64,000 nucleotides of DNA from a virus. How positions within the stretch are numbered: the first letter of the stretch is position 1; the number at the start of each line of letters is the position of its first letter. This document shows positions 7,035 through 42,605 of this stretch, one piece after another. Location: IMG/VR virus record IMGVR_UViG_3300045988_168563, positions 28,530 to 92,529 of that record; one strand, written 5' to 3'. The position numbers and the translations under genes were made by a program. The notes beneath the pieces were generated by a model. That model was not told the DNA's origin. It saw only the letters and a list, made by a program, of their open reading frames with translations, and searched no databases.

Positions 7035-7056
7035 CCCCGACAAGGGATATCCCCCG
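7035..7056. repeat. 22-nt motif copy A (CCCCGACAAGGGATATCCCCCG)
   Basis: Identical to copy B. It contains the palindrome GGGATATCCC. Confidence 0.8.
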
Positions 7057-7075
7057 CAAGCGGCAGGGCTACCAA

Positions 7076-7110
7076 CCGGAGGATACCATCCGGAGGTTGC
7101 CAGCCGGAGG
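7076..7110. repeat. three tandem CCGGAGG units with a 14-nt period
   Basis: CCGGAGG occurs at 7076-7082, 7090-7096 and 7104-7110, inside the GC-rich ORF-free element. Confidence 0.7.
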
Positions 7111-7144
7111 GAATCCCAGCCAGGGCGCAGGCGTAAGCCCACAA

Positions 7145-7166
7145 CCCCGACAAGGGATATCCCCCG
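7145..7166. repeat. 22-nt motif copy B (CCCCGACAAGGGATATCCCCCG)
   Basis: Perfect repeat of copy A, 110 nt away and in the same orientation. Confidence 0.8.
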
Positions 7167-7191
7167 ACGTTCGGCCGAAGGCCGCAGGGGA

Positions 7192-7773
7192 TTAGAAGAT
7201 ACGGCTGGCCTGACGGTAGAGGTACAGGCGGGCACACAGGAGAGGGTCGGAGATACCGACGTAGTGGCAGACGGAGACGACAACATTCAGCGCTCTGGCT
7301 TCAGCTCTCGTTCCATAGTTGTCATCATTCCTCAGTCCGTCCAGGGCGATAGCACCATTGCGCAGGATGCTGTCCTTGCTGTGGTAAGGACCATTCTGGA
7401 AGATATGGGTCAGCCACAGAGCGCCATTCTCCTTCTTGCTTATGCGGAAGATGAGGTGTGCGATAGCACCACCCATCAGGACATAGAAGTATGGAAGAGA
7501 GCTTGCTACCTTCCTCAGGAGACCATACTTGCGTACGCGATTGTCAAGGACGTCACGCAGGAGCGTAGCCTTCTTCTGGCTGGGCTGCGCCCACTTAATG
7601 ATTAGACATAGGACGAACTGTAGGATGCGTGCTTTGCTCATCAGCTTAGCGATAGCTTCGTAAGCAAGGCGATAGTTTACGACTGCGCTATCCTTGGTGC
7701 CGGCATTAGGAATGGCGGTCTTTGCTGCGTTGATGATAGCGGTGATCTCGTTGTTGACGTTGATAGTATTCAT
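7192..7773 (-). CDS. hypothetical protein
   Basis: 193-aa ORF with an ATG start. Its 3' end abuts the GC-rich element 6832-7191. Confidence 0.6.
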   Translation of the reverse strand: MNTINVNNEITAIINAAKTAIPNAGTKDSAVVNYRLAYEAIAKLMSKARILQFVLCLIIKWAQPSQKKATLLRDVLDNRVRKYGLLRKVASSLPYFYVLMGGAIAHLIFRISKKENGALWLTHIFQNGPYHSKDSILRNGAIALDGLRNDDNYGTRAEARALNVVVSVCHYVGISDPLLCARLYLYRQASRIF

Positions 7774-7814
7774 ATATGTAGGTGTTGTGCCGTTAGGCGG
7801 TTATTGTTAAGTAT

Positions 7815-7840
7815 GGGGGAGGCTTTAGCCCTCCTCCCCC
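7815..7840 (-). terminator. hairpin after gene 7850..8197 (terminator candidate, no U-tract)
   Basis: GGGGGAGG/CCTCCCCC 8-bp stem, 10 nt past the stop codon. No T-run follows on the minus strand. Confidence 0.35.
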
Positions 7841-7849
7841 TTTAGGGCG

Positions 7850-8197
7850 TTAGAATGGGAGGTCGTCAGTCTTTCCAGCGAGGACCTCTTGGTATATGAT
7901 GTGAGCCCGCTGGTCGCGGATAGCATCATCAATGAAGCTACGCAGAGAGCGTCGACGATCTCTCTCACCCTTAGCTGCGTCAAGGACGGTTAGGTAGTCT
8001 TCCTTCTCTGCGTACCGCTCCATAAACTCAGCCATTTCACGGTGAGCCTTAACGAGTTGCATAGCGAAGATGACTTCTCCTTCCTCAGAGATTAGACATA
8101 GGTCAAGCGTAGAGTGCAGCTCATCGAGCATAGCTTCGTCTGAGAGTGCTTCACCGAATTGCTTGAGCGTTTCCTGTGGGATTCTATATGCGTTCAT
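7850..8197 (-). CDS. small helical acidic protein ending in an SSB-tip-like tail (..KTDDLPF)
   Basis: 115-aa ORF. I verified the C-terminal codons 7853-7867 as D-D-L-P-F followed by a stop. There is no OB-fold-like sequence. Confidence 0.65.
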   Translation of the reverse strand: MNAYRIPQETLKQFGEALSDEAMLDELHSTLDLCLISEEGEVIFAMQLVKAHREMAEFMERYAEKEDYLTVLDAAKGERDRRRSLRSFIDDAIRDQRAHIIYQEVLAGKTDDLPF

Positions 8198-8228
8198 AAT
8201 CGTGTTGTTATTATAGGGTTAGTATGGT

Positions 8229-8260
8229 AAAGCCACCTCCCCCGGTGTGGGGAAGGTGAC
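8229..8260 (-). terminator. intrinsic terminator after gene 8269..9129
   Basis: 12-bp stem. The two non-Watson-Crick positions are G.U only when the minus strand is folded. TTT follows. Confidence 0.55.
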
Positions 8261-8268
8261 TGCTGTTA

Positions 8269-9129
8269 TTAGAAGGGGAGACAGTCTGATTCGAAGAGGC
8301 CGGCGTGGAAGTTGTCATCAACTTCGAGGCGCTCCATCTCCTCGTAGTCCTCATCAGTCAGACGCTCACCAGTGTAACCGACCTTGTATTCACCGGTCTC
8401 TTCATCGAAGAACACCTCGAACTCATCACTGATGAAGGCCGACTCTCTCGCCATCTCCTCAGCGGCGATAGCCGCATTCTGAGTTAGCTCCATATCGAGG
8501 TCTAGCCAGTAATCCAGCTGAGCCATCCCACATAGCTTGCCGTAGAGAATACGATACTCTTCCTCAGTGGCAAACATACTAATGCCTGCCATAAGGTCTC
8601 TGTCTCTTGCTTCAGCACTGTCAAGGACGATCTTCTCGACCCATCCCATAGATTCCTTCTCATCAGTGTCATAGTAGAGGCATTCCTCAACACGACTGAA
8701 TGAGTAGGTGCGCTCAGCAAGCTCATCATAGCTGGATATATTAAGGTTAGACAATAGGGTTGACAATTCACAGGTATGCTCCTCCTCAGGAACAGCATAG
8801 CCGATTTCACCACGCTCTTCGGCATCGACGAAAGTATCGTACTTCTGACTGTCGAAGGCTACAAGACCATCAAACAGCGCACGATACTCAATATCTGTGG
8901 CGTGAGCCTTGACGATATCAGCAAGGTAGTCAGCTATGCAACCTTCTGCACAGCGACCTACAGCACGCTTGATATCATCAATATTACCATTGGTGCCATT
9001 ATACTTCAGCCCATCGAGGACGATATTAGCCACAGGAGACCACAAAGCCATAGCAAGCTCAGCATAAGAAGAGCACCAAACGTTAGACAGAAGGACGGAC
9101 GATTCACGGAGGGTCTTGATTGCTTCCAT
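8269..9129 (-). CDS. strongly acidic protein, first gene of the leftward block, tail ..ESDCLPF
   Basis: 286-aa ORF, visibly D/E-rich (DEFEVFFDEETGEYKVGYTGERLTDEDYEEMERLEVDDNF). I verified the C-terminal codons 8272-8286 as D-C-L-P-F followed by a stop. Terminator 8229-8260 follows. Confidence 0.7.
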   Translation of the reverse strand: MEAIKTLRESSVLLSNVWCSSYAELAMALWSPVANIVLDGLKYNGTNGNIDDIKRAVGRCAEGCIADYLADIVKAHATDIEYRALFDGLVAFDSQKYDTFVDAEERGEIGYAVPEEEHTCELSTLLSNLNISSYDELAERTYSFSRVEECLYYDTDEKESMGWVEKIVLDSAEARDRDLMAGISMFATEEEYRILYGKLCGMAQLDYWLDLDMELTQNAAIAAEEMARESAFISDEFEVFFDEETGEYKVGYTGERLTDEDYEEMERLEVDDNFHAGLFESDCLPF

Positions 9130-9287
9130 TGTAGTAAGGTGTTAGGAAGTGAAACAATAAGGATGAACACCACCCTACACAGGATGGCGTACGACAGATA
9201 TAACAAGGCAACAACAGCTAAGTATAGCCATAGCATCACCACAAAACAACACAGCGGAGATAGACGAAAAGGTGGGAAGAGGAATAG

Positions 9288-9297
9288 CCCCCCCCCC
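9288..9297. repeat. C10 homopolymer
   Basis: Ten consecutive C residues in the noncoding region upstream of the first leftward gene. Confidence 0.9.
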
Positions 9298-9598
9298 ACC
9301 TCACGTCTTCCCATTGTAGCCGTCATCACAACAGCTATTCTGGGTGTTGTTGTCTTGTTCACTAGGATTGCCTAGCGCAGGGGTGTGTATTATCTCCTGA
9401 GGAGGGGAGAGTAGGTAATACACCCTTGATGTGGAGCTGGGTTACACCCCTTGCTGAGCTGTGCACTGGACTCTGTGTCCTTGGTGCTTGTGACCTGGCC
9501 AGCGTCCTGCACTGGTGAGGTCTAGGGTGCGAGCTATGACGTGTGTCGCTCGCTATGCTCAGCGGTGGGGTACCCACATCGTTGTGGTACCCATCGCT

Positions 9599-9620
9599 CC
9601 CTGACAAGGGATATTCCCCG
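9599..9620. repeat. 22-nt motif copy C (CCCTGACAAGGGATATTCCCCG)
   Basis: 20 of 22 identical to copies A and B, in the same orientation. Similarity to copy A continues about 25 nt further (..GCA..GGG(C/G)TACCAAC..GGAG). Confidence 0.75.
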
Positions 9621-9702
9621 CACCCGGGGGTACCAACACAGGAGCTGATTGCTGGAGGGGGTCCGAAGCGGGAGCCGTCAGCGCGAGTAAGTTCTGCTGT
9701 AT

Positions 9703-9729
9703 CTAAAAATTTTTTAGGTCATTTTTTTT
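9703..9729. repeat. AT-only palindrome CTAAAAATTTTTTAG plus T8 tract
   Basis: Palindrome at 9703-9717 and T8 at 9722-9729, at the boundary between the GC-rich element and the direct repeats. Confidence 0.8.
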
Positions 9730-9774
9730 GTAGTCCTAAATCGGAGGTCATCAATATGATTGGTATTGGTACTA

Positions 9775-9815
9775 TGGTTGAGGAAGGGATGGTGTATTCT
9801 GGTTGAGGAAGGGAT
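9775..9815. repeat. direct repeat TGGTTGAGGAAGGGAT x2 (25-nt period)
   Basis: Perfect 16-mers at 9775-9790 and 9800-9815. Confidence 0.85.
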
Positions 9816-9902
9816 AGTAGATGCACTTAGTGATCCTGAGTGTGTGCTGTGTAGGTGCCGGACTTAGCTGTGTGTTCGGTGTGGCTGAGGTGGGAATGGT
9901 GT

Positions 9903-9956
9903 GGGTATTTTGGTTGAGGAGGGTGTAGATCATCCTGGGTATTTTGGTTGAGGAGG
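9903..9956. repeat. direct repeat GGGTATTTTGGTTGAGGAGG x2 (34-nt period)
   Basis: Perfect 20-mers at 9903-9922 and 9937-9956. They share the GGTTGAGGAGG/GGTTGAGGAAGG core with the 9775-9815 pair. The second copy supplies the -33 TTTG of cassette 0. Confidence 0.85.
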
Positions 9957-9966
9957 AAGAAGTGTG

Positions 9967-10054
9967 TATCTTTGGTGTGAGAAGTTTCGACATAACTGTT
10001 TGGTATTTATCGTAGGATACGTGTTGCCCGTGATGGGTGGCACGTATTCGTTTT
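9967..10054 (+). ncRNA. candidate small-RNA cassette 0 (promoter to terminator, no ORF)
   Basis: -33 TTTG at 9943-9946 and -7 TATCTTTG at 9967-9974 (20-nt spacer, canonical Bacteroidota arrangement). Terminator hairpin at 10017-10047 (13 bp including 3 G.U, GTGA loop), then TTTT at 10051-10054. Confidence 0.4.
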
Positions 10055-10059
10055 ATGTG

Positions 10060-10167
10060 TACCTTTGTGTTGCTGGGTTTTGAGCTTTTTCCCAGCACAT
10101 CATATTTCCATTGGTTTATAGTTTTACATGGTACGCGTTGTCTGAGAAGATAGCGCGTATCGCTTTT
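10060..10167 (+). ncRNA. candidate small-RNA cassette 1
   Basis: -7 TACCTTTG at 10060-10067. 5' hairpin TGCTGGG/CCCAGCA at 10071-10097. Terminator hairpin at 10132-10159 (12 bp, GAGA loop), then TTTT at 10164-10167. Confidence 0.4.
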
Positions 10168-10172
10168 ATGTA

Positions 10173-10256
10173 TATCTTTGCGGTAGGGGAGTCTTCCCCT
10201 CGTGTGTGCCATTGTTTGTATGCATCATCTCTATATGGGGTGGTGCATACTTCTTT
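10173..10256 (+). ncRNA. candidate small-RNA cassette 2
   Basis: -7 TATCTTTG at 10173-10180. 5' hairpin AGGGGA/TCCCCT at 10185-10200. Terminator hairpin at 10218-10250 (14 bp with G.U pairs), then TTCTTT. Confidence 0.4.
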
Positions 10257-10265
10257 GATATGTAT

Positions 10266-10350
10266 TATCTTTGTGGCGATAGGTAATTAGCTTCATATTG
10301 ATTGTTTAGTTAGGGTTACATGCACTGCTCCTCGGGGTGGTGCATGTTCT
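10266..10350 (+). ncRNA. candidate small-RNA cassette 3
   Basis: -7 TATCTTTG at 10266-10273. AGGTAATTAG motif at 10281-10290. Hairpin at 10318-10347 (12 bp). The T-tract is weak (TCTCGTAT). Confidence 0.35.
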
Positions 10351-10362
10351 CGTATAAAGGTG

Positions 10363-10453
10363 TATCTTTGCACTGTTGAGTCTCCCATACTATTTAGGTT
10401 AGTTGTTAAACTGGGTCTGCGCATCACTCTCATGAGTGGTGCGCATATCTTTT
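10363..10453 (+). ncRNA. candidate small-RNA cassette 4
   Basis: -7 TATCTTTG at 10363-10370. AGGTTAGTTG at 10396-10405. Hairpin at 10418-10445 (12 bp), then TTTT at 10450-10453. Confidence 0.4.
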
Positions 10454-10454
10454 G

Positions 10455-10549
10455 TACCTTTGTGTTGTGGATATAATAGGTTAATTGGCTAATCAAGTGT
10501 AGCTTGATTTTGGTACGCACTGCCTGGGAAGGTGGTGCGTATTGCTTTT
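10455..10549 (+). ncRNA. candidate small-RNA cassette 5
   Basis: -7 TACCTTTG at 10455-10462. AGGTTAATTG at 10478-10487. Small hairpin at 10491-10509. Terminator hairpin at 10514-10541 (11 bp), then TTTT at 10546-10549. Confidence 0.4.
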
Positions 10550-10570
10550 GGGGATTTGAGGAAAGGGTGG

Positions 10571-10690
10571 TATCTTTGCCTTGTAATAAATCTTATCGTT
10601 ATTCTTGGGCTGTGAGGTTAGTCCCACAATTTCCATTTCAAATTTGTCTATCAGCTGTGCGCTACTCGGGAGAGTGGCGCATGGTGTTTT
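10571..10690 (+). ncRNA. candidate small-RNA cassette 6
   Basis: -7 TATCTTTG at 10571-10578. AGGTTAGTCC at 10615-10624. Hairpin at 10658-10681 (10 bp, GGGA loop), then TTTT at 10687-10690. Confidence 0.4.
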
Positions 10691-10780
10691 GGTAGGTTGG
10701 GGATTATATATACCTTTGCGGTGAAGGGTGGCGACCTTTCTGCATCGTATCTTATCTTTTATCTCTGCTCCTCGGGGCTT

Positions 10781-10856
10781 GGAGTGTGATCCAAAGGCTT
10801 GGGCCTGACTTTGTCGGGTGGCTGGCGCCGAGGTGGTTCGATTCCCCCGCACTCTA
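10781..10856 (+). tRNA. non-canonical tRNA-like element 1 (possible aberrant or class II-like tRNA; anticodon unclear)
   Basis: 7-bp acceptor GGAGTGT/GCACTCT (two G.U). T arm GGTGG-TTCGATT-CCCCC (canonical T loop, one U-C mismatch). D arm CCA-AAGGCT-TGG with GG in the loop, and a 12-nt variable arm GGC-TGGC-GCC. The anticodon arm folds as CCTGAC-TTT-GTCGGG or with a 7-nt loop ACTTTGT lacking U33. No CCA is encoded. Confidence 0.3.
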
Positions 10857-10859
10857 CTA

Positions 10860-10916
10860 CTGACTGGTGCTGTAGGCACGCGTGACGACGCTAGGGTTTG
10901 ATTCCCTACGGTCAGG
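10860..10916 (+). ncRNA. tRNA-like minihelix element 2 (acceptor + T arm, truncated core)
   Basis: Perfect 7-bp acceptor CTGACTG/CGGTCAG (one G.U). T arm TAGGG-TTTGATT-CCCTA. Only 25 nt lie between them (two short hairpins, GTGC-TGTAG-GCAC and GCG-TGACGA-CGC), too short for D plus anticodon arms. It lies 3 nt after element 1. Confidence 0.3.
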
Positions 10917-11262
10917 TCTTATCACTGCTCTCTCCTCATGAGGAAGACAGCAACACATTGCGCTTGTAGGGCCCTATCCCCGAAGGCGATGGTCTGCGAC
11001 TGATAGGTCGGTCAAGCGGATAGTGGTGTGAGATGGCGGCGACTCAGTGATCCGTTCGGTACACTTTATTACTCACAAATGGGGGACACCAAAGACCTGC
11101 CTAAGATCCCCTGCCAATACGAAGGTATATCAGGCTACCTTCGAGTAGAGGTCGGACGATGACACCGAGACCTCGCAATGACGCTCACCTTTCCATAGGG
11201 TGGGCGTCGCCTTTTATACGCCACCACAATGTCCTCTTTCCTCAGGCCATATAGTTATGCCT

Positions 11263-11270
11263 TACCTTTG
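11263..11270 (+). promoter_or_regulatory. late-operon promoter -7 box (TACCTTTG)
   Basis: It matches Bacteroidota TAnnTTTG, lies 25 nt upstream of ATG 11295, and immediately follows terminator 11180-11215. Confidence 0.55.
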
Positions 11271-11294
11271 CGGTATAACATAGTACGTACATAT

Positions 11295-12773
11295 ATGGCA
11301 AAAGATAATCAACCACAAATATCAGTACCCCTGCGTGCAGCTGCTGACTCTACCAAGGTCAAGCGGTTCTATAGTAGTGGCAATGGTGCTGTCAATACCA
11401 CTGGGTTTGGCGAGTACATAAGCCAGCCTAATCAAGTTGAGAATGACAAGGACCCTGGGAACATCGTCTCTAAGCTAGCGGCTGCTGGAGCTATCGGATC
11501 TATCGGGGCTACGCTAGCTGCTATCACCGGTAGGGTGGGTGTCAATGCAGCCTACTCTGGTGGTAAGACCCTTGTCAAGCCTATCGTGAGGGCTGGCTAT
11601 GGGGCTGCAGCTGTCGGTAGGAACATTGCTGATAGGGTCATGAGGAAGGAGGTAATAGTACCTATTGGTGAGTCGGCTAAGGCTGCTATACAGAAGGCTG
11701 GTGAGTCTAAGACCCTCCTTGGTAGGATAGCCAATGCCGAAGCTGCTATCGTTGGTGACAAGGCTCTCAAGGGTGGAGCTAAGCTAGCTAAGTTCGCCAA
11801 GTACTCTAACATGATTAAGTGGGCTGGCCCACTCTCTACTGCCGCAAGCGCTGGGCTGTCCGCAATAGCCGCAAACGCCTCCCTGCACGGCAAGTATGAC
11901 CCCGAGAAGCTACCTAGATATAATATAGGTGAGTTAGGGAAGGATGTTCCAGGGTATAGGATAGGTAGCCGCGCTGGTCTAGTCGACCCAAACTTCGTTG
12001 GTGATAATATCACTGGTGCAGCTGTTAATCTTGCGAGGACGACGATTAGTGGTGGTCAGCAGGTTAAGGGTCTTATCAAGAAAGGCGGGAAGGCTGTGAT
12101 GGAGTTCTTCGGGGTACCTGAGGGTACAGCGGATAAGATTGCTGGTGCAGGATCAAGAGTCGCAGCTGGTATATTGACAGGTCCTCTGTCACATGATGCT
12201 GTCTATAATCAAGTTGACGGCTTCCTCAAGGGATATAGCACCGAAGGCAATGTTGATCCAGACAAGGTCTATGGTAAGGATATGCGCGGTCGTATGATGG
12301 CAGACCTCTTCGTCAGGGCTAAGATGCGCGGTATGGAGGGTGTGCCTAACTCTTACCTCGCTGTTAACTCAGCTGAGGAAGAGGCAGCTAAGCTCTACAA
12401 GGAAGGCAAGCTGGAGAAGGCTGCACTCGACAAGACACCTGCAGAGATCTTCTACAACCCATCAAAGGAGCGTGGCTACAATAAGGATCCTATGATGAAC
12501 ATGGCTGCATACTACCCAGGCGATGATAGGTACCCAGTCTATATGCATACCCTCAGACAAGCATACGCTGAGAAGCACGCAGGTAACAACCCTAACTCAG
12601 CTGAGTATAAGAAGTTCGAGCAGGTCTTCGATAGCTATCTCTCCTCAACCGCGACTAAGCGAGGTGGCGAGAATGAGGATATCAGAGATGAGATGAGGAA
12701 GGAAGCGTTTGACTACTACCACCAGAAGCGTAAGGCAGCTGCAGAGAAGCGGTATGAGCCTATCAAGAAGTAG
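11295..12773 (+). CDS. Gly/Ala-rich virion-associated protein candidate (first late gene)
   Basis: The track ORF starts at 11229, but a TACCTTTG -7 box sits at 11263-11270 inside that extension. The ATG at 11295 (atatATGgca, MAKDNQ..) has the A/T-rich context typical of the other starts. Function unknown. Confidence 0.7.
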   Translation: MAKDNQPQISVPLRAAADSTKVKRFYSSGNGAVNTTGFGEYISQPNQVENDKDPGNIVSKLAAAGAIGSIGATLAAITGRVGVNAAYSGGKTLVKPIVRAGYGAAAVGRNIADRVMRKEVIVPIGESAKAAIQKAGESKTLLGRIANAEAAIVGDKALKGGAKLAKFAKYSNMIKWAGPLSTAASAGLSAIAANASLHGKYDPEKLPRYNIGELGKDVPGYRIGSRAGLVDPNFVGDNITGAAVNLARTTISGGQQVKGLIKKGGKAVMEFFGVPEGTADKIAGAGSRVAAGILTGPLSHDAVYNQVDGFLKGYSTEGNVDPDKVYGKDMRGRMMADLFVRAKMRGMEGVPNSYLAVNSAEEEAAKLYKEGKLEKAALDKTPAEIFYNPSKERGYNKDPMMNMAAYYPGDDRYPVYMHTLRQAYAEKHAGNNPNSAEYKKFEQVFDSYLSSTATKRGGENEDIRDEMRKEAFDYYHQKRKAAAEKRYEPIKK

Positions 12774-13438: not shown

Positions 13439-14004
13439 TCAAGCTCTTCAAGAAAGAAGGGCTTGACATAGTGATCTCTGAGGAAGCCTACCTCCTCAAG
13501 CCGTTCGCCGATATCTGGAAAAGAGATAAGTCCAAGAATAAGCTAACGGCACAGCTGGAGCTGGCATTCATATACTTCTTTGCCGACCCCAGGTCAGAGT
13601 ACCAGATGTACAATGATCCTGAGGAAAGGACAAAGATGATAGTTGAGGGTTTAGGGATGGAGTCCGGATGGGCCCCATCCCCTCTCGTTACAGAGGCTAT
13701 CACTTTCTATGAGTCGTTCAAGCCCGTATCAGCTAAGCTACTGGATAGCACAAGAGGACTCATAAACAAACTGTCGGCGTTCCTAGAGGAGATCGACTTC
13801 CGCGCTGTGGATGATAAGGGTAAGCCCCTCTATCAGCCGAATACTATCACTAACACCATCAAGCAGCTACCAGCCTTGGTGTCTACCCTTAACGAGGTAG
13901 AGAAGACCATGAACTCTGATATTGAGGAGAGCGCCGCTATCAGAGGTAGCATGAGGAAGGCTGTGGGTGAGGATGCCTTTGACTTTAGTGACGATGACGA
14001 TTGA
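13435..14004 (+). CDS. hypothetical protein; small terminase subunit candidate by position only
   Basis: 189-aa ORF immediately upstream of TerL, overlapping it by 11 nt. It has an acidic tail (FDFSDDDD). No motif recognised. Confidence 0.35.
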   Translation: MIKLFKKEGLDIVISEEAYLLKPFADIWKRDKSKNKLTAQLELAFIYFFADPRSEYQMYNDPEERTKMIVEGLGMESGWAPSPLVTEAITFYESFKPVSAKLLDSTRGLINKLSAFLEEIDFRAVDDKGKPLYQPNTITNTIKQLPALVSTLNEVEKTMNSDIEESAAIRGSMRKAVGEDAFDFSDDDD

Positions 14005-16255
14005 GCTTAATGAATATCAGACACCGCTAGAGGTACTCACACCTGATATGCCTGAGGAGGTGAAGGAACAGATGGATGACTTCATCCAGTCTGTCCCCTT
14101 CATCCAGCACCTCATAAGCCCACACCGCAAGCGCGCTAAGGACCTACCACGTGACGAGCGCGGTCGTATCATAGTAGACATAGCCCATCCTCACATCATT
14201 GAGGATATGGATTACTTCAGGCCTGCAGCTATACACTTCGAGAAGCACGGCTGTTACACTAAGCTCAAGCCTAACACCAACCCTTCATCTCCCTTCGGGC
14301 AGTGGCTTCGTGAGGAGACAAGAAGAGTCCTTGATGGCTACGTGCGAGAGTCTGATGGCGAGTGGATCACAGGTGATCTGTACTACTACCTCAACTACAG
14401 CCCCATCATGGTCTCTAAGATCAGAGAGGACCAGCCTGGTGTTGCTGACCGCGTGGAGGCATTCCCAGAGATGTGGGAGGGTGTGTACTGGAGATACCAC
14501 TACCTGTATCAAGCGCGTAATGGAGGTATGTACAATGCCTTCCAAGGTGGTAATCATGCCTTTGAGCTAGCTCGTCGTGGTGCAGGTAAGTCCTACTCTC
14601 TGGCCTCACTCATGGCTAAGCGTCTCCTCGTCGGCGAGTCAAAGAAGGTGCAGAAGCGTGTGACTAGCGTGCTACTCGGTTATATCAAGGAGTACCTGCA
14701 AGACAAGGACGGCACGCTCTCTAAGTTTGAGCCTATGATGAACTTCGCTAGGTCTCATACCGAGTGGCCCAATAGTCTCGTGAGGAACAGCATGAGCGAT
14801 ATGATGTGGCGATGTGCATACGTCAATCCTCATACTGGTGCTGTCGAAGGCAAGAACAACGTGGTCATGGGGCTGCCTGTGAAGGACGATGACTCTAAGG
14901 CGCGTGGTAAGCGTGGTTGGATCTTCATCGAGGAGTTCGGTTCGTTCCCTTCCCTCATCGACCTGTACAACACCATCATGTACTCTGTTGAGGAGGGTGG
15001 TGTGACCTTCGCGCTTATCTATGGGGTAGGTACGGCTGGTTCTGATGCGTCTGAGTTCTCCTCAGCACAGGAGATCATGTACCACCCTGTGGCCTACAAG
15101 GTCTATAACGTGCCTAACGTCTATGACAAGGCCACAGGTGGTAGCAAGGATCGCTTCTGCTTCTTCTTCCCTGCATACGTAAACCGTAAGGGGTGCTACA
15201 ATAGTGATGGCGTGTCTGACGTAACAAGGGCTCTTTATGAGATCCTGATGGACAGGTATCGCATCAAGTACAGCACGACTAACCAGGACACGCTGATACG
15301 AAGGATAGCGGAAATGCCTATCGTTCCTCAGGAGGCTATACTGCAGGTCAAGGCTAGCTACTTTCCATCACATGCGCTGAGAGAGAGGCTGGCTGAGATA
15401 GACAATGATCCCTCCTTCTATGCAGGTGTCATCTCCTGTGAGCTATCGCGCAAGGGCTATGACGTGAGTGTGCATCCTGTCAGTGACCTTCCCATCCGTA
15501 ACTTCCCACTGCCAGACAATAAGTCTGCAGGGCATGTCGAGATCTTCGCTATGCCAGAGAAGGATGCTGATGGCAAGGTGCAGCAAGGTAGATACATCGC
15601 TGGTATGGACCCATACGACAACGACCAGGCGGATACCTCATCCTTAGGATCGTTCTTCGTCTTGGACCTCTTCACTGATGAGATCGTATGTGAGTACACC
15701 GGCAGGCCTAGCTTCTCGGATGACTTCTACCGCACGTGTTGTGATATAGCCATCCTCTACGACTGCCGCATCTGCTATGAGAATAACAAGAAGGGTCTCT
15801 TTGCGTACTGCTCAAGGTATAACCTCACACACCTCCTTGAGGATACCCTAGAGTTCCTCCGTGATAGAGACCTCCTCAAGGCTAGGCCTATTGGTAACGC
15901 AGCTAAGGGTGTGACGGCTACCGCCGGTATCAACGCCTATGCTAGGAAGAAGTTAGCTGAATGGCTCGTGATGCCTGTGAGTGTCACACGTCAGACAGAT
16001 GAGGGTGAGGTCTATGATTATGAGATACCCAATCTCTGCAGGATAAAGAATCGCGCTCTTCTTCAGGAGCTGATAGCTTGGAACGACATAGGTAACTTCG
16101 ACCGCGTGTCAGCTATGGGTATCCTCATGCTATACCGCGAGTCGATGCTCATCAGCTTCCAAGAGCACGATGAGGAGAAGCAAGAAGAGATAGATCAGAA
16201 GATGAACTTCTTTGATCGCAATCTGCGTGGCGGTAAGAGCAACCCTTATCTTTAA
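13994..16255 (+). CDS. terL: terminase large subunit
   Basis: Walker A-like RRGAGKSYS (GAGKS = 14579-14593), Walker B-like GWIFIEEFGSF, and a C-terminal nuclease-like IAGMDPYDNDQADTSSLGSFFVLD. The track start 13967 is GTG; the ATG at 13994 is preferred. Confidence 0.8.
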   Translation: MTIELNEYQTPLEVLTPDMPEEVKEQMDDFIQSVPFIQHLISPHRKRAKDLPRDERGRIIVDIAHPHIIEDMDYFRPAAIHFEKHGCYTKLKPNTNPSSPFGQWLREETRRVLDGYVRESDGEWITGDLYYYLNYSPIMVSKIREDQPGVADRVEAFPEMWEGVYWRYHYLYQARNGGMYNAFQGGNHAFELARRGAGKSYSLASLMAKRLLVGESKKVQKRVTSVLLGYIKEYLQDKDGTLSKFEPMMNFARSHTEWPNSLVRNSMSDMMWRCAYVNPHTGAVEGKNNVVMGLPVKDDDSKARGKRGWIFIEEFGSFPSLIDLYNTIMYSVEEGGVTFALIYGVGTAGSDASEFSSAQEIMYHPVAYKVYNVPNVYDKATGGSKDRFCFFFPAYVNRKGCYNSDGVSDVTRALYEILMDRYRIKYSTTNQDTLIRRIAEMPIVPQEAILQVKASYFPSHALRERLAEIDNDPSFYAGVISCELSRKGYDVSVHPVSDLPIRNFPLPDNKSAGHVEIFAMPEKDADGKVQQGRYIAGMDPYDNDQADTSSLGSFFVLDLFTDEIVCEYTGRPSFSDDFYRTCCDIAILYDCRICYENNKKGLFAYCSRYNLTHLLEDTLEFLRDRDLLKARPIGNAAKGVTATAGINAYARKKLAEWLVMPVSVTRQTDEGEVYDYEIPNLCRIKNRALLQELIAWNDIGNFDRVSAMGILMLYRESMLISFQEHDEEKQEEIDQKMNFFDRNLRGGKSNPYL

Positions 16256-16280: not shown

Positions 16281-18698
16281 ATGAACGAAAAGAAACAAAA
16301 GGGTGGATTTCCTCAACAGAATCTCCCTAATAGCAAGAAGACACGTGACTGGTGTATCCAGTGCGTGGACTGGGCGAAGGGTACATCCTCTGTGGTTTCC
16401 TCATCGTCCGTAAGACACAGCATCGCAAGGAAGAAGATCAACTATGACCTCATGAATGGTATCATCCATGAGGAGGACATGGCGTCCTTCTTCAACCCTT
16501 ATGGCTTCGCTGACTCCGATGCGCCTGGTAAGATTCAGCACTTCCCCATCATCAACTCTAAGATCAACGTCCTCCTTGGTGAAGAGTCGCGTAGGCCTTT
16601 TGACTATCGTGTCATAGTGACCAACCCCACCGCGGTGTCAGACATGGAGGAGATGAAGAAGCAGCAGGTGATGGAGAACATCATGGCTGTCATGGAATCA
16701 GGTATCACCGATGAAGCTGAACTCAAGGAAGCCTTCAACGAGATACAGCATAGGTACGCTTATAAGTGGCAGGACCTACGCGAGATTCGTGGTAATGCCT
16801 TCCTCAAGCACTACTCTTCTGAACTCTCACTGCCGCTGATGTTCAACAAGGGATTCCTTGATGCGCTCATCGTAGGTGAGGAGATCTATAGGTGTGATAT
16901 CGTAGCTGGTGAGCCTACTATCGAACGTCTCGACCCTATGAAGGTGCGAGTCTTCAAGTCTGGATCATCGGGTAGCATTGAAGATGCTGACATCGTCGTA
17001 GTGGAGGACTACTGGTCCCCTTCACGCATCCTAGATATCTATGGAGATAACCTGTCAAGGGAAGAGATCGATAAGATACACTCTGGCTCTTCCTCAGGAC
17101 TTATAGGTGGTGAAGGAGATAACTTCACCGTCGCAGAGATGTTCGGTCGCTTTGGTATCCATTACTCTGGACCAAACGACACGGCTATCTATAATGGGTC
17201 TACTGTGGCTTCCTCATTGACACCATACGACTTTGAGGGAAACGTCCGCGTCATGCAGGTCTATTGGAAGTCCATCAGGCAGGTGAAGAAGATCACCTCT
17301 ATCGACCCTATGACCGGTGCTGAGGTGTCTACCCTAATGCCCAGTGACTACAAGGTAGATGAGCTCGCAGGTGAGACAGCGAAGATCATGTATATCAACG
17401 AGGCCTGGGAAGGTGTACTCATCGGAGACGACATCTACGCTAACCTCGGTCCCAGGAAGATTCAGTTCAACAGGCTGTCTAATCCTTCCAAGTGCCACTT
17501 CGGTATAGTAGGTAGTATCTACAACCTCAGCGAGGACAAGCCTTACTCCCTCGTCGATATGATGAAGCCGTATAGCTACATGTACAACCTTGTGCATGAC
17601 AAGCTCAACAAGATCATCTACGACAATATCGGTAAGGTAGTCCAGCTGGATATGGCTAAGCTCCCAGCCGAGATGAAGTACGAGAAGTGGTGGTCTATTC
17701 TGAGGAAGATGAAGATGGTCGTGACCAATTCATTTGAGGAAGGGAAGGTTGGTGTAGCTAAGGGTAAGCTAGCCGGCGCGCTGAATAACAACGTAGCTGC
17801 CTCTATCGACCTTGACCTCTCCTCATCGATCATGAACCACGTCCAGCTTCTAGCCTCTATCAAGGAGGAGATGGCTGACGTGGCTGGTATTTCAAGACAG
17901 CGAGAAGGTCAGATCTACAATAGGGAGACTGTAGGAGGTGTCGAGCGCGCCACGCTGCAGTCCTCGTATATCACCGAGTGGATCTTCACTATCCACGAGG
18001 ATGTGAAGAAGCGCGCGCTAGAATGCTTCCTTGAGGTTGCAAAGATTTCACTACGCTATGGGTCAAAGAAGTTTGAGTACATCCTACCAGACCAGTCTAG
18101 GCAGATCATGTCTGTCGGAGGAGAAGAGTTTGCAGAGTGCGACTATGGTATCACTATTGATTCTTCTCGTGGGACGATGGAGATCAATCAGAAGCTGGAT
18201 ATGCTGGCTCAGGCCGCTCTCCAAAATCAGGCCATTGACTTCTCTGCTATCATCAAACTCTACCAGTCTACCTCAATATCTGAGAAGGCAAGTATCATTG
18301 AGCAAGGTGAGCAGGCTATGCGTCAACGCCAGGCTGAGCAGATGCAGGCTCAACAGCAAGCTGAACAACAGGCTGCAGAACAGCAAATGCAGCTCAAGAT
18401 GGCTGAGCTCGATCTCAAGGACCGAATTAGTCAACGTGAAGTGGACGCCCAGCTTGAGATTGCTAAGATGAAGGAAGCGTTCGGCTTCGGTCAGACGATC
18501 TTCCGTATCGACGACGACGTATTCTCTGAGGAAGAGCAGAGGACTCTTGAGCAGTCTGATAGGCAGTTCGATGAGAAGATGAAGCTCGAGAAGGAGAAGC
18601 TGGAAGCGAACAACAAATACAAGCAGCGACAACTGGAGATCCAGGAGCAAGCTGCAAAGGCAGCCAGTGCCAAGGTGGTATCTGGTAAAAAGAAGTAG
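16281..18698 (+). CDS. portal protein (by size and position after TerL)
   Basis: 805-aa ORF directly downstream of TerL. The C-terminal Q/E-rich coiled region (QRQAEQMQAQQQAEQQAAEQQMQL) is typical of portal barrels. The assignment is positional. Confidence 0.6.
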   Translation: MNEKKQKGGFPQQNLPNSKKTRDWCIQCVDWAKGTSSVVSSSSVRHSIARKKINYDLMNGIIHEEDMASFFNPYGFADSDAPGKIQHFPIINSKINVLLGEESRRPFDYRVIVTNPTAVSDMEEMKKQQVMENIMAVMESGITDEAELKEAFNEIQHRYAYKWQDLREIRGNAFLKHYSSELSLPLMFNKGFLDALIVGEEIYRCDIVAGEPTIERLDPMKVRVFKSGSSGSIEDADIVVVEDYWSPSRILDIYGDNLSREEIDKIHSGSSSGLIGGEGDNFTVAEMFGRFGIHYSGPNDTAIYNGSTVASSLTPYDFEGNVRVMQVYWKSIRQVKKITSIDPMTGAEVSTLMPSDYKVDELAGETAKIMYINEAWEGVLIGDDIYANLGPRKIQFNRLSNPSKCHFGIVGSIYNLSEDKPYSLVDMMKPYSYMYNLVHDKLNKIIYDNIGKVVQLDMAKLPAEMKYEKWWSILRKMKMVVTNSFEEGKVGVAKGKLAGALNNNVAASIDLDLSSSIMNHVQLLASIKEEMADVAGISRQREGQIYNRETVGGVERATLQSSYITEWIFTIHEDVKKRALECFLEVAKISLRYGSKKFEYILPDQSRQIMSVGGEEFAECDYGITIDSSRGTMEINQKLDMLAQAALQNQAIDFSAIIKLYQSTSISEKASIIEQGEQAMRQRQAEQMQAQQQAEQQAAEQQMQLKMAELDLKDRISQREVDAQLEIAKMKEAFGFGQTIFRIDDDVFSEEEQRTLEQSDRQFDEKMKLEKEKLEANNKYKQRQLEIQEQAAKAASAKVVSGKKK

Positions 18699-29702: not shown

Positions 29703-31265
29703 ATGAGTAAGTTAATTCAGAATGGGCTCCAGCCCTTACAGGTAGCAAGGACCTCTGGGTGGACTGGTCTGACGACCGAGAACCACCTCGCATCCATCGG
29801 CTATCGCTCTCCCCAGCTTCTGGCGGACTTTATGGTTAACCTTGTGTCACGAAATTCAAAGGGTAGTAACCTCGAGGCTTTCCTGCGCAAGTTCCCCATC
29901 AAGTACGTAGAAACGACCAACGACTACGAGTGGGACGTCGTCGGCGGCTATAGGCGTAATATCCCTCTGATCCAGGCTCGCGACGAGAGCGGTGCTATCA
30001 TCGACGAAAACTACGGCAACGTCGGTCGCAACTTCTCTCCCTTCTACCTGGTCTTCCCCGAGGACTACTTCTTCAAGGGTGAGATCATCATGGGTGAGAA
30101 GAACGAAGTCTATCCTCTCCACATCCAGGATCACCCTGTCAACGAAGGCTCGCAGGTTGTCTACCGCGTAGTCCTCGCTAACGGTGATGAGAATGGTATC
30201 CCTGCAAGGGAGCTTCTGGAAGGCCGCAGATTCAGCTACTCTCACACGATCATCGAGAGTGAAATGTCTCGCAGCGTTGGCGGTATCCGCTTCGGTGAGG
30301 CTAACAGGATGCGCAACAACTTCACTAACATCCGTCTCGACTACAAGGTCGCTTCTGAGCGTTTCGTCAAGGAGAACAGCGGTATGATGTTCCTCTATCC
30401 TTTCATCGATCCCGACAACGGCAACAAGGTTGAGATCAAGGAAGCATGGGTACACTACACCGAGTGGCTTGCTGAAATCCAGTTCCGCGAAATGAAGGCT
30501 AACATGCTTGCCTATGGTCGCTCCACCAAGGGCGCTAACGGTGAGTTCACGCTCTTCGGTGCTTCCGGTAACAAGATCAAGACAGGTGCAGGTCTCTACG
30601 AGCAGATCTCCTACGGCAATCAGCACTACTACACGAAGTTCAACATCGAGATGTTCGAACGCGCACTGGTAGACTTCTCTGTCGACAACAAGGAGTTCGG
30701 CGAACGTAAGTATATCCTCCGTACCGGTGAGTATGGTGCTATCGCCTTCCACAAGGCTGTTTCTGACTCTGTCAAGGGCTGGGCTTATATCGGTGATGGT
30801 AACGCTCCCGCTGTCACGAGGACGAACAGTCCTTACCACGACAACGCTATGGCTGCAGGCTACCAGTTCACTGAGTACCGCGCTCCTAACGGCGTGACGA
30901 TCACTCTCGACATCGACAGCATGTACGATGACATCGTTCGTAACAAGATCTCTCACCCCCAGGGAGGTACGGCATTCTCTCACCGCTTCGACCTCTTCGA
31001 CTGCGGTACGACGGACAACCCCAACATCCAGCTTGTACAGCCTAAGGGTGCAGAAGAACACCGCTCTGTCATCGTGGGTACGACGAGGTACAATGTTGCA
31101 GGCACGCTGATGAGCCACGCTCTGAGCGCTTATGGTGGTGGTACCTACCAGCACTCTGCTAACGACGAGGATAGCGTACAGTTCACTCGCACCGCTACGA
31201 TGGGTGTATGTGTCCGTGACGCTTCGCGCGTAATGTCGTTCATCCCCTCGATCCTCAGGGACTAA
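29703..31265 (+). CDS. major capsid protein candidate
   Basis: 520-aa ORF after the scaffold-like gene. Very even codon usage produces a 432-aa stop-free antisense shadow ORF, typical of highly expressed genes. Size and position are compatible with an HK97-fold MCP. Not verified by homology. Confidence 0.55.
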   Translation: MSKLIQNGLQPLQVARTSGWTGLTTENHLASIGYRSPQLLADFMVNLVSRNSKGSNLEAFLRKFPIKYVETTNDYEWDVVGGYRRNIPLIQARDESGAIIDENYGNVGRNFSPFYLVFPEDYFFKGEIIMGEKNEVYPLHIQDHPVNEGSQVVYRVVLANGDENGIPARELLEGRRFSYSHTIIESEMSRSVGGIRFGEANRMRNNFTNIRLDYKVASERFVKENSGMMFLYPFIDPDNGNKVEIKEAWVHYTEWLAEIQFREMKANMLAYGRSTKGANGEFTLFGASGNKIKTGAGLYEQISYGNQHYYTKFNIEMFERALVDFSVDNKEFGERKYILRTGEYGAIAFHKAVSDSVKGWAYIGDGNAPAVTRTNSPYHDNAMAAGYQFTEYRAPNGVTITLDIDSMYDDIVRNKISHPQGGTAFSHRFDLFDCGTTDNPNIQLVQPKGAEEHRSVIVGTTRYNVAGTLMSHALSAYGGGTYQHSANDEDSVQFTRTATMGVCVRDASRVMSFIPSILRD

Positions 31266-39600: not shown

Positions 39601-40774
39601 CCTCACTAGGGTAAACCAGCTTGGTAGGTATGATAGGAACATCGGTATCAAGACCCCTCAGGCTATGAGTATGGACAACGTCAATAAGATGAACGATGTC
39701 TACAACGACAGGATGACCCTCAAGACGTACGATATCATCCCTGACTACATGCTTACGTCACATCACCCAGCGTCATTTACATGGAGTAAGACTAAGCAGA
39801 ACGGAGAGTTCATTGATAACTACACGCACTTCAGTGGCGCTTCTACAGCATCCCTTGATGGTATCTGTGGTAGTATCACAAGAATCCTCTCCTCATCAGA
39901 CAGACTGTTCTTCGTACAGAGACAGGGTATAGGACTTATCAACTACAACAGCAGGGTCCAGGTCCAAGCATCTGATGGTGTGCCTATCGAGATCAGCAAT
40001 AGCCGTAAGGTCGATGGTCATAGGTACATGTCTAAGGAGATCGGTACAGGCTCTCTGAGGAGGGTATGCCATTCCGCTTCGGCACTCTATCTCCTTGACG
40101 ACCGCACTAGCACGCTTTACAGCCTCTCTGACGGCTTATCTCCCATCTCTAAGCAGAAGTCTATGCAGGACTATTTATCGGCCACCACAGGGGCTGTATT
40201 ACTCTCAGAGGGGGTGATGAATAGGATTCACGTCTGTACTAAGGATGAGACGCTGTGCTACAATGAGGAGCTGCAGGCCTTTGAGTCCTTCTACGACTAT
40301 AAAAAGATTGAGGAGATGTTCGTCCTTGGTCAGTCGGTCTACAGCTTGGCTTATGGGTATCTCTGGCATAACGAGTCGAAGTATGGTGCAGGTCTGTACA
40401 ACCAAGCTCTTGACTGGTACATCCACTACAGGGTCAATCCTGAAGGTGCAGGCGAGGATAAGATCTTCACCAACCTCGACGTCCGTGGTGACACTTGGGA
40501 TGGTGATAAGCTGATCACCCTTGACCTCACAGAGATGGACGTGTGGACGGAGTATCAGCGCACTATGGGCTATGGGATTACCTTTGTAAAGAACTATCCG
40601 TCAGTGATGAAGGAGAAGTTCAGGATTTACAGAATACAGATCCCACGAGACGCGCAGAGCAAGTTCAAGATGGATCGTATCAGGAATCCATGGATGCACC
40701 TCAGGCTCCACTCTAATGGTGGCTTGCTCTACAGGAGCATCATTCACGATATAACTGTTCACTATTACGAGTGA
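36644..40774 (+). CDS. large tail structural protein (hub/muzzle-type candidate)
   Basis: 1376-aa ORF, beta-rich throughout, sited in the tail part of the late operon. The role is inferred from size and position only. Confidence 0.7.
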   Translation: MKEKVIRLMARGMAQDHAEARASNDLAYELRNIRISSDGSNTLFSISCIKGTEAKSSVPGRVVATTVIGDKAVILSKLGNDGMVFVFDGENIKKIYQTEMNLSDNVDMIGVVERDDIEKVYWVDGVNPLRSLNIHDKRLATNPDVDYINNTWSLSFEEEVSVTQSWGRGSKLHSGNVTYLFTYSLLHGKESKVFAESDVYYITHSDGRGGSGEDIINCSFDIEVTGLDQKADFVNVYRILRTSEGGTPDVQRVYSIPVTGTSVEFHDYGQPGISIEPQAILYLGSNTIIASTLAAKDNTLFLGNLSIPGFKLSEEEQKTIKDHYAAGGINFNPVDVEPFRARQAGKGHKDISVLMPYEHYPVAIQLISKTGQESNPVPVGVFIAPDSPSRLVVSPPPVVGDYVGYRVLIHYPSTKERRTIANGVLSPTLYTVADREDGVPYAFSSYCFRPITRDELLPESLGDLTVNKSLFRKEVDQPFFKSSSSTAGLASAQVRVCAEIQTFNTPDIQDCYDEDIQLHVKTLGAPIESYVYRDTRVEEGKWSDISTTYDHESLLRPSLSTTIGSTTRLEPGSKILKVSSLETDMVGVAIPLFSTKDTSGGKVVENTTARLSVYGRATTDERTLNGKTSTWRNGGASLQKVDGDTYLGEVDKILPAIKGGVSRFLGVDGKGQARSVSSISGPTRMKYGTSDHFVIKLSKDDLVANEVKRDGLPPSAVSDFMNTMEGRWFTHDFDPQGGANLGGAKNCWGPVSIEFHDGDFPDTSYADIATTFFSSVEEVREKLFPSWLTLDADNGKETFYYATPPGGVYWNKHEAMDDKKGKMRIISPYTKDSGDVIDSNGVPFRHSLYKTDATSVGLWLAFVSRGQIAKGVGSSSNDRDNLRRLMREILKVTAEKLMSRYNQVPVSSKSIVKAPLTDSVLPIALMTREAPGYDIDSLRWESYSYVTPIAKSATGGGDTYYQTTTLFKTIPSSEANKVTDIIDIPLLTRVNQLGRYDRNIGIKTPQAMSMDNVNKMNDVYNDRMTLKTYDIIPDYMLTSHHPASFTWSKTKQNGEFIDNYTHFSGASTASLDGICGSITRILSSSDRLFFVQRQGIGLINYNSRVQVQASDGVPIEISNSRKVDGHRYMSKEIGTGSLRRVCHSASALYLLDDRTSTLYSLSDGLSPISKQKSMQDYLSATTGAVLLSEGVMNRIHVCTKDETLCYNEELQAFESFYDYKKIEEMFVLGQSVYSLAYGYLWHNESKYGAGLYNQALDWYIHYRVNPEGAGEDKIFTNLDVRGDTWDGDKLITLDLTEMDVWTEYQRTMGYGITFVKNYPSVMKEKFRIYRIQIPRDAQSKFKMDRIRNPWMHLRLHSNGGLLYRSIIHDITVHYYE

Positions 40775-40779
40775 TTGAT

Positions 40780-42531: not shown

Positions 42532-42538
42532 CAGATAT

Positions 42539-42572
42539 GGAAGAGTGGTGGCGACAGTGCCATCATTCTTCC
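42539..42572 (+). terminator. hairpin after gene 40780..42531 (terminator/attenuator candidate)
   Basis: 14-bp stem GGAAGAGTGGTGGC/GCCATCATTCTTCC (two G.U), 8 nt after the stop. There is no T-run; the -7 box follows directly. Confidence 0.4.
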
Positions 42573-42573
42573 G

Positions 42574-42581
42574 TACCTTTG
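42574..42581 (+). promoter_or_regulatory. internal late promoter -7 box (TACCTTTG)
   Basis: It lies 1 nt after hairpin 42539-42572 and 24 nt upstream of ATG 42606. Confidence 0.45.
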
Positions 42582-42605
42582 AAGAGATACTAATAATAAT
42601 ATATA

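Follow-up and report, generated by a model that had tools for sequence, protein, structure and literature searches.

The locus and its features

The stretch of DNA analyzed here, a 64,000-nucleotide (nt) segment of IMG/VR virus record IMGVR_UViG_3300045988_168563 that is referred to as the window throughout, comes from a crAss-like gut phage. It carries genes for a crAss-type large terminase (TerL, 13967-16255), a portal (16281-18698) and a major head protein (29703-31265), all assigned with PHROGs, as well as Crassvirus cargo proteins at 40780-44438 that were assigned with Pfam. The GC content of the window is approximately 50%, and the closest characterized phage according to TerL is IAS virus (Steigviridae), yet the two proteins share just 52% identity. 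Between the first leftward gene, starting at 9129, and the first rightward gene, starting with the ATG at 11295, lies a region in which the initial annotation had proposed a battery of tandem promoter-to-terminator cassettes without open reading frames (ORFs), regarded as candidate small-RNA genes. The cumulative GC skew turns at this strand-switch point. No blastn match to the ORF-free stretch was obtained among 50,697 phage records, and ARAGORN called no tRNA or tmRNA gene in the window. The features of the locus are as follows, T1 to T7 denoting the terminators of units 1 to 7 in the text below.

9758-9956, plus strand: variable upstream zone with four to five copies of (T)GGTTGAGGARGG, found by repeat-family and motif scans
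9967-10056, plus strand: unit 1; box 9967-9974, predicted RNA about 9980-10056, terminator 10015-10049 followed by GUUUU
10060-10169, plus strand: unit 2; box 10060-10067, 5' hairpin 10071-10097, single-stranded body, terminator 10130-10161 (GNRA loop) followed by CUUUU
10173-10256, plus strand: unit 3; box 10173-10180, 5' hairpin 10185-10200, body, terminator 10218-10250 followed by UUCUUU
10266-10353, plus strand: unit 4; box 10266-10273, body, terminator 10318-10347 (UCGG loop), weak U-tract
10363-10453, plus strand: unit 5; box 10363-10370, body, terminator 10418-10445 followed by UAUCUUUU
10455-10550, plus strand: unit 6; box 10455-10462, internal hairpin 10491-10509, terminator 10512-10543 (GGGA loop) followed by UUGCUUUU
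10571-10692, plus strand: unit 7; box 10571-10578, body hairpin 10606-10635, terminator 10654-10685 (GGGA loop) followed by GUUUU
10711-11215, plus strand: unit 8; box 10711-10718, structured RNA of about 490 nt, terminator 11179-11209 followed by CCUUUU
10780-10856, plus strand: tRNA-like module 1 of unit 8; long variable arm, abnormal anticodon arm, sub-threshold match to Rfam tRNA-Sec (29.7 bits, 47 required)
10860-10915, plus strand: tRNA-like module 2 of unit 8; mascRNA-like, sub-threshold match to Rfam mascRNA (34.1 bits, 42.5 required)
10916-11178, plus strand: 3' domain of unit 8, about 270 nt, conserved and structured
11263-11297, plus strand: box 9 (11263-11270), predicted promoter of the rightward structural operon, 32 nt upstream of ATG 11295 with no hairpin between

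Promoter boxes

All nine same-strand copies of TAYCTTTG that had been counted previously (9967, 10060, 10173, 10266, 10363, 10455, 10571, 10711 and 11263) were recovered at exactly these positions on the plus strand, with successive spacings of 93, 113, 93, 97, 92, 116, 140 and 552 nt. The motif is strongly enriched in the window, where it occurs 14 times against an expectation of 3.10 ± 1.62, a count that none of 100 shuffles reached; the looser form TAnnTTTG shows no enrichment outside the array (20 sites, about 19 expected). Two of the five TAYCTTTG copies outside the array are intergenic and precede a start codon by 27-32 nt, one at 5574 on the minus strand, 27 nt before the leftward gene at 5554, and the other at 42574 on the plus strand, 32 nt before the ATG at 42606 of a cargo-protein gene. 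The consensus of the sigma factor sigma-ABfr consists of TAnnTTTG at -7 and TTTG at about -33 (PMC7366714). The array boxes fit this consensus, with eight exact TAYCTTTG copies heading units, in agreement with the earlier assignment of the motif to the -7 element of the Bacteroidota primary sigma factor, and it is plausible that the box is a working promoter. Boxes 1, 7 and 8 also carry TTTG 20 nt upstream, at the position of the -33 element. The U-runs of the terminators of units 6 and 7 (GCTTTTGG and GTTTTGG, respectively) are located exactly 20 nt upstream of the next box and are predicted to double as the -33 TTTG of the following promoter. Among the variable columns within boxes, five of eight fall on the free 'nn' of TAnnTTTG (hand count).

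The ninth box had been included in the battery, and while the box itself is real, it heads no cassette and appears to be the promoter of the structural operon. Its -32 offset is retained in every related locus with enough upstream sequence, and the layout of box 9 and ATG 11295 is the same as that of box 42574 and ATG 42606. At the latter site (42536-42581) the TACCTTTG box before the cargo-protein-2 gene adjoins a hairpin of 18 bp that includes G.U pairs, forming a terminator-promoter junction of the array type with a similar GAGTGGTGGC arm.

Directly upstream of unit 1, the last copy of (T)GGTTGAGGARGG in the variable zone provides a TTTG 20 nt upstream of box 1, that is at the -33 position, and the earlier copies are followed by degenerate box-like sequences such as GTGTATTCTGG. 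These copies may be decayed promoter copies or binding sites of a regulator. The columns just upstream of box 1 (9900-9966) are highly changeable, 73% of them varying among relatives.

Terminator hairpins and strand-specific folding

The eight plus-strand hairpins listed above are all real and lie where the initial annotation had placed them, although with 12-15 bp they are slightly longer than the 10-14 bp it had assigned to them. As it had also noted, a T3-T4 run follows seven of the eight, the exception being the hairpin at 10318-10347, which is followed by TTCTCG. When we searched the entire window for stems of 10 bp or more with a subsequent TTT, 11 were obtained on the plus strand, seven of them at 10015-11209, and a consensus terminator scan returned six array hairpins. 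Boxes and terminators are clustered far beyond chance at this locus.

The units fold with an un- or weakly structured 5' part, followed by the 12-15 bp terminal hairpin. Folding energies of the plus strand range from -24 to -33 kcal/mol (z -2.9 to -5.5) compared with -12 to -23 kcal/mol for the reverse complement, and G.U pairs make up about 23 of the 99 pairs in the terminator consensus (counted by hand in the pair table); these would become C.A mismatches if the minus strand folded. With roughly a quarter of the pairs being G.U and the plus strand folding better, the earlier proposal of a constraint acting on plus-strand RNA holds. GNRA loops, several of which had been reported, are present in T2 (GAGA) and in T6 and T7 (GGGA), whereas the GUGA of T1 is part of a 5-nt loop, GUGAU; T4 has a UNCG-type loop, UCGG. 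Among relatives the T2 loop varies between GAGA, GUGA and GGGA, so that the GNRA class is kept.

The terminator hairpins align with one another as paralogues with a shared form of about TACGCAyy...GGUGGUGCGUAU. Only the boxes and the terminator arms recur between units, with 64-100% identity and at irregular spacings of 92-140 nt. A shared 5' motif, AGGTWART, which had been ascribed to cassettes 3-6, withstood the analysis in part: exact copies are found at three positions in the array (10396, 10478 and 10615), but 10281 reads AGGTAATT and does not fit, and the motif, which has 12 matches in the window against 5.5 expected, is poorly kept in related genomes.

Conservation in related phages

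Relatives were retrieved with the neighboring 492-aa protein, yielding 15 IMG/VR and 15 metagenome loci (69-99% protein identity) with 23 distinct array sequences. The boxes are found at the same offsets in all but one of the related loci spanning the array, with occasional mutations of single boxes (box 1 in L010, box 6 in L012 and L180, and box 7 in L008 and L176). Identity to the window is 95-96% in the array (88% in one subclade), compared with 71-83% in the adjacent gene, 75-88% in the upstream spacer and 89-95% in TerL. When alignment columns of the array and of TerL were classified in the same 15 genomes, variable columns accounted for 12% of the boxes, 14% of the RNA bodies and 15% of the stems, compared with 41% of the seven bases after the box, 37% of the hairpin loops and 30% of the inter-unit spacers. 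The corresponding values for TerL are 8%, 4% and 55% at codon positions 1, 2 and 3, respectively, the seven bodies being about 4-fold more constrained than TerL third codon positions. Purifying selection acts on the whole of the predicted RNA bodies, as strongly as on coding positions. Conservation of boxes, bodies and stems together with drift of the start zones is what one would predict for transcription that begins a few bases past the box and yields an RNA that is functional over its whole length.

The stems are conserved as helices. In 21 distinct sequences 99.5% of 2751 cells are standard pairs, whereas only 35-56% are when the 3' partner is slid by 1-3 columns; changes on both sides affect eight pairs (26 cells), and none of 500 shuffles matched either the paired fraction or the covariation score. 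One-sided stem changes proceed nearly always via G.U, and the maintenance of the stems was also seen with RNAalifold. The alignment of related genomes and the search for covariation that the initial annotation had called for accordingly revealed conserved hairpins with compensatory changes. In unit 1, two compensatory pairs (AU to GC and CG to UA, in either direction) distinguish 5 of the 21 sequences, and the largely unstructured, U/G-rich body is almost invariant at 9980-10012. A 44-nt segment of unit 3 (10184-10227) is invariant in all 21 sequences. The terminator of unit 4 has two compensatory pairs and six one-sided G.U switches, that of unit 5 likewise two compensatory pairs, and the hairpin of unit 6 is invariant except for one pair. 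Between subclades, the body of unit 5, which contains a 5-nt indel, differs most. CAU precedes a U/G-rich run in six of the seven bodies, and the complements of these bodies resemble start regions of Bacteroidota genes.

These data bear on two rival explanations. According to the first, the locus is a promoter battery acting as DNA, namely as a sink for RNA polymerase or sigma factor, as an insulator between the divergent gene blocks, or as a transcription-activated origin, and the RNAs are by-products or primers. Its location at the strand-switch point where the cumulative GC skew turns, the adjoining iteron-like repeats at 9766-9956, and the presence of nine consensus boxes in 1.3 kb would be compatible with such a role. 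However, the constraint is strand-specific and operates at the level of RNA, as seen from the G.U pairs, the GNRA and UNCG loops that are kept as a class, and the compensatory changes; moreover, the bodies are as conserved as the boxes, while a sink or insulator would tolerate drift of the bodies. We therefore regard a DNA-acting battery as very unlikely.

The second explanation is a cis-acting leader of the late operon, in which eight promoters load host RNA polymerase and the hairpins stop it until a phage antiterminator (lambda Q-like or put-like) appears, allowing a tight off-state and a large late burst. Lambdoid phages provide a precedent, as a promoter, a short terminated RNA and a terminator lie ahead of their late operons, and in the present phage all units lie directly before the structural operon and point at it; the short U-tracts also suggest leaky termination. 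In lambda itself, 6S RNA is made from PR' to tR' under Q antitermination, with one promoter, one terminator and no further promoter before the late genes. The array resembles this system in its short, predicted terminated transcripts just upstream of late genes on the same strand. However, a lambda-type Q leader was rejected because the array has eight predicted promoters, each unit has a conserved body of its own, and the operon has a separate box beyond the last terminator. Since this box (11263) is located past the last terminator and no hairpin intervenes before the ATG, the terminators cannot gate the operon. In addition, gating requires only promoters and terminators, and yet the bodies are constrained to the extent described above; no site at which a factor could act is common to the seven bodies, one genome lacks units 2-7 altogether, and no antiterminator homologue was seen among the neighboring proteins. 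A leader function thus appears improbable. Both the antitermination leader and the polymerase sink, which had been offered as alternatives by the initial annotation, fit the data worse than the small-RNA interpretation, as neither needs unique conserved bodies and the operon has its own box. The selection pattern, the strand asymmetry of the stems and the seven differing bodies taken together point to plus-strand RNA products instead of a DNA element or leader.

Coding potential and RNA families

The statement that no credible ORF occurs in the region needs to be qualified, since mechanical minus-strand ORFs of 146 aa (9772-10212), 75 aa (10293-10520) and 128 aa (10493-10879) exist, but no reading frame is conserved on either strand. 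A protein-coding stretch, made up of these ORFs or of small plus-strand ORFs, was also considered. However, on neither strand are the longest ORFs the same across genomes, and indels of 1, 2 and 5 nt inside them leave the frames broken or shifted in most relatives; substitutions track the layout of helices and boxes and not a codon periodicity. The minus strand of the array region is T-poor (AT skew -0.335) and has few stop codons, which explains the long minus-strand ORFs. We consider a coding function hardly credible.

The Infernal scan against Rfam 15 that had been proposed identified no RNA family at the gathering score in the whole window, all hits at an E-value threshold being sub-threshold. 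The best match to a Bacteroides small RNA (sRNA) in Rfam was BTnc201 with 22 bits (105 required; E = 0.82), which was obtained via the terminator only.

Unit 8 and the tRNA locus of IAS virus

The predicted unit 8 RNA differs from the others in its length and in its two tRNA-like modules. Both modules retain acceptor, D-like and T arms and have abnormal anticodon arms, and compensatory changes were found in their anticodon-like and D-like arms as well as in 3' domain helices. In module 1 the 'anticodon' loop differs between genomes (CUUUG, CUGUG or CUCUG). As neither module is called by ARAGORN or has a normal anticodon arm, their identification as tRNA genes was rejected.

In IAS virus the syntenic locus, between the leftward block and the block of HU, chaperonin and TerL genes, contains 18 tRNA genes. 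Boxes of the TACCTTTG type are present 25 nt before its tRNA-Gln gene and 20 nt before its tRNA-Thr gene, and a further box, at 2065, is followed by 360 nt without an ORF, which may represent another non-coding RNA. The occurrence of the same box in front of tRNA genes suggests that the locus is an RNA-gene island driven by this box, and judging by sequence the present clade holds small RNAs and tRNA mimics there in place of tRNAs. The array is similar to the IAS virus tRNA array in its locus, its orientation, and the box before the RNA genes, and unit 8 keeps the two tRNA-like modules; in contrast to the tRNA array, no tRNA is called, and the units end at terminators and would not be processed from a tRNA precursor. 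A mixture of RNA types at such a locus has a parallel in phage T4, whose tRNA cluster contains small stable RNAs. In the IAS virus record (NC_049978.1, 2463-4861) RefSeq places the 18 tRNAs on the minus strand, whereas ARAGORN places all of them on the plus strand, which is the TerL strand. The number of tRNA genes otherwise ranges from none in the 64-kb window to two or three in most of the AT-rich sister-clade loci examined (none in L161).

The tRNA-like modules in particular raise the question of decoys directed against host defense. Under this explanation the small RNAs or the unit 8 modules mimic CRISPR repeats, antitoxin RNAs, or tRNAs that are attacked by anticodon nucleases, and soak up or poison defense proteins. 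Such a role would agree with the accessory nature of units 2-7, which are deleted in one related genome, with bodies that are all different, as in a set of distinct mimics, and with modules that keep acceptor and T arms while their 'anticodon' loops are abnormal and variable. The start of the unit 2 RNA, GUUGCUGGG...CCCAGCAC, may bear a faint resemblance to Bacteroidota CRISPR repeats. On the other hand, the array lacks repeat-spacer periodicity and identical repeats, has no likeness to any Rfam family, and its bodies are mostly unstructured, unlike most repeat hairpins. Decoy function, especially of the tRNA-like modules, is a serious alternative, although we judge it unlikely.

Three known RNA systems were also considered and rejected. 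A CRISPR array or a solitary-repeat RNA anti-CRISPR does not apply, as near-identical, regularly spaced direct repeats are absent. A type III toxin-antitoxin RNA would have tandem identical repeats of about 34-36 nt, which do not occur, and the neighboring proteins are without a toxin family match. A Y-RNA/Ro system, suggested by the TROVE protein of crAss001, was dismissed because no TROVE or other RNA-binding family was detected among 20 neighboring proteins.

A probable family of sibling small RNAs

In summary, the small-RNA-array interpretation is supported by the comparative evidence, and we consider it probable that 9967-11215 forms an RNA-gene island encoding seven trans-acting sibling small RNAs, made by host RNA polymerase, and the unit 8 RNA. 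For units 1-7 the comparative evidence favors the earlier view that each is an autonomous RNA gene of 70-120 nt; unit 8, with about 490 nt, does not conform to this size. The seven units would give rise to RNAs of approximately 70-110 nt, each starting at a Bacteroidota-type promoter for the host primary sigma factor, with predicted starts 4-8 nt after the box, and each ending in the U-run of its own strong intrinsic terminator. Host RNA polymerase would make them as discrete RNAs. The RNAs would be siblings in that they have a paralogous 3' terminator hairpin but differing, mostly single-stranded U/G-rich bodies, and these conserved single-stranded bodies would enable them to act in trans. 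The likeliest mode may be extended base pairing with mRNAs of the host (less likely of the phage) at A-rich translation start regions, in the manner of canonical Hfq-independent Bacteroides sRNAs; alternatively, the RNAs might bind or titrate a protein.

Several observations weigh against this interpretation. No convincing antisense target was found in the 64-kb window and in two related-genome stretches extending about 10 kb and about 18 kb beyond the overlap. RNAduplex applied to all start regions gave only loopy, uninformative duplexes, and an exact k-mer search only chance-level matches of 10-14 nt. The best start-codon-anchored pairing was a borderline one between the body of unit 4 (10294-10311) and 40765-40782, at the cargo-protein-1 gene (40780). 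This duplex has 15 contiguous pairs, six of them G.U, and was equaled in 7 of 200 shuffles; it is the only candidate and is not convincing. A 20-mer from the body of unit 4 had three matches in 185,579 bacterial species genomes, all of them chance matches in unrelated taxa. Furthermore, the U-tracts are short (3-4 U, almost none in unit 4), which would permit read-through and nested transcripts. The compensatory changes mostly represent one split, between L004, L011, L013 and L173 and the remaining genomes, and hence few independent events at low diversity, and recent recombination sweeps in a mosaic genome could account for part of the high identity of the array. In the sister clade (TerL 57-58% identical, GC 34%) a single box is present and the array is absent, which indicates that the array is young and confined to one clade. 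Finally, in one relative (L175, OWMB01000007.1, 90,295 bp) units 2-7, about 650 bp, are missing; at 2330-2440 of this single metagenome contig, which has an assembly coverage of about 5.7-fold, the unit 1 terminator is joined to the body of unit 8 via a hybrid -7 box. This loss looks like recombination between repeated boxes, and suggests that the array is accessory or dispensable and changeable in size.

A more far-reaching proposal is that the array constitutes a modular RNA battery for host takeover that replaced the tRNA locus of relatives. Such a battery could be expanded or shrunk by recombination; the shared 3' hairpin would be a possible handle for an RNA-binding protein, while the differing U/G-rich seeds silence several host mRNAs, and a tRNA-mimic RNA would accompany them. 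We put this forward only tentatively.

Comparison with known RNA systems

High-confidence intergenic sRNAs of Bacteroides thetaiotaomicron were defined by a transcription start site, an unstructured body and an intrinsic terminator, and some unstructured A/U-rich Bacteroides sRNAs may need extended seeds in a genus without an obvious Hfq or ProQ homologue (PMC7366714). Like the Bacteroides sRNAs GibS and BTnc201 (PMC7366714), the units described here combine, judging by sequence, a sigma-ABfr-type promoter, a mostly single-stranded, A/U-rich body and an intrinsic terminator and lack an ORF, and they are set in a phylum without Hfq or ProQ. Unlike the Bacteroides sRNAs, they are located on a lytic crAss-like phage, form a head-to-tail row of seven with paralogous terminators, and match them neither in sequence nor through Rfam. 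Long intergenic regions of the crAss-like phage phi14:2 rank with its most highly transcribed sequences, above most genes, the long non-coding RNAs are present from the earliest time point, and middle and late genes use host RNA polymerase (bioRxiv 10.1101/2020.03.07.982082). The present phage is likewise crAss-like with a long ORF-free region; no array of promoters and terminators was reported for phi14:2.

Tandem sibling sRNAs such as LhrC1-4 of Listeria and PrrF1/2 of Pseudomonas stand in a row, each with its own promoter and terminator, and arose by duplication. Whereas these siblings share their seed and differ little, the units of the array share the 3' hairpin and differ in their bodies; they are also found in a phage and are more numerous (seven plus a long one). 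RNA anti-CRISPRs are small, dispensable phage non-coding solitary repeat units with their own promoter, sometimes present in several copies. In contrast to these, the bodies of the array are unstructured and all different, and no similarity to CRISPR repeats could be shown. No analogous array was found among the first 120 matches listed from a scan of IMG/VR for three spaced boxes, most of which were coding tandem repeats of 27 nt or belonged to the clade of the present phage, and a literature search revealed no description of such an array in crAss-like phages.

Sequences flanking the array

Upstream of the array, G+C-rich, apparently structured sequence followed by an A/T-rich tract occurs at window 9270-9740, at 2480-2620 of locus L154 and at 1885-2010 of IAS virus (L136), immediately before the first leftward gene in each of the three clades. 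This stretch could be a leftward promoter or leader, or an origin. A hairpin of the CTGCCGAAGGCAG type is common to L154 and IAS virus at the corresponding position upstream of the first leftward gene, and about 11 consecutive C residues occupy 9289-9299 of the window. Six of 11 near-full-length IMG/VR contigs of the clade start or end at the window equivalent of 7039-9526, a 2.5-kb zone just upstream of the array. No evidence was obtained for a physical genome end beside the array, as the termini of the only contig that can be checked on both sides overlap by 55 nt, which is indicative of a circular assembly; contig ends probably cluster here because of a variable region that breaks assemblies. 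Words resembling TTGAGGARG are enriched throughout the window, with 43 matches to TTTGGTTGAGGARG (up to three mismatches) against 8.5 expected.

Implications

No viruses of the human gut are more abundant than crAss-like phages, and yet, to our knowledge, hardly anything has been learned about their takeover of Bacteroidota hosts, and we know of no regulatory RNA in crAss-like phages with an assigned function. Phage-encoded sRNA genes and sibling sRNA genes were known before; what is new here is a row of seven promoter-to-terminator units together with a tRNA-like unit. The array provides concrete and easily testable candidates, in the form of short RNAs with ends predicted at nucleotide resolution, along with a naturally occurring deletion variant. 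The junction at which a terminator U-run would also serve as -33 element may offer a compact natural template for multiplex RNA expression in Bacteroides. If the RNAs are decoys, they would add an RNA-based strategy of anti-defense, and if they act on host mRNAs, they would open up phage riboregulation in a phylum lacking Hfq and ProQ. Should the proposed modular takeover battery prove true, Bacteroidota phages would have their first regulatory module built of multiple sRNAs.

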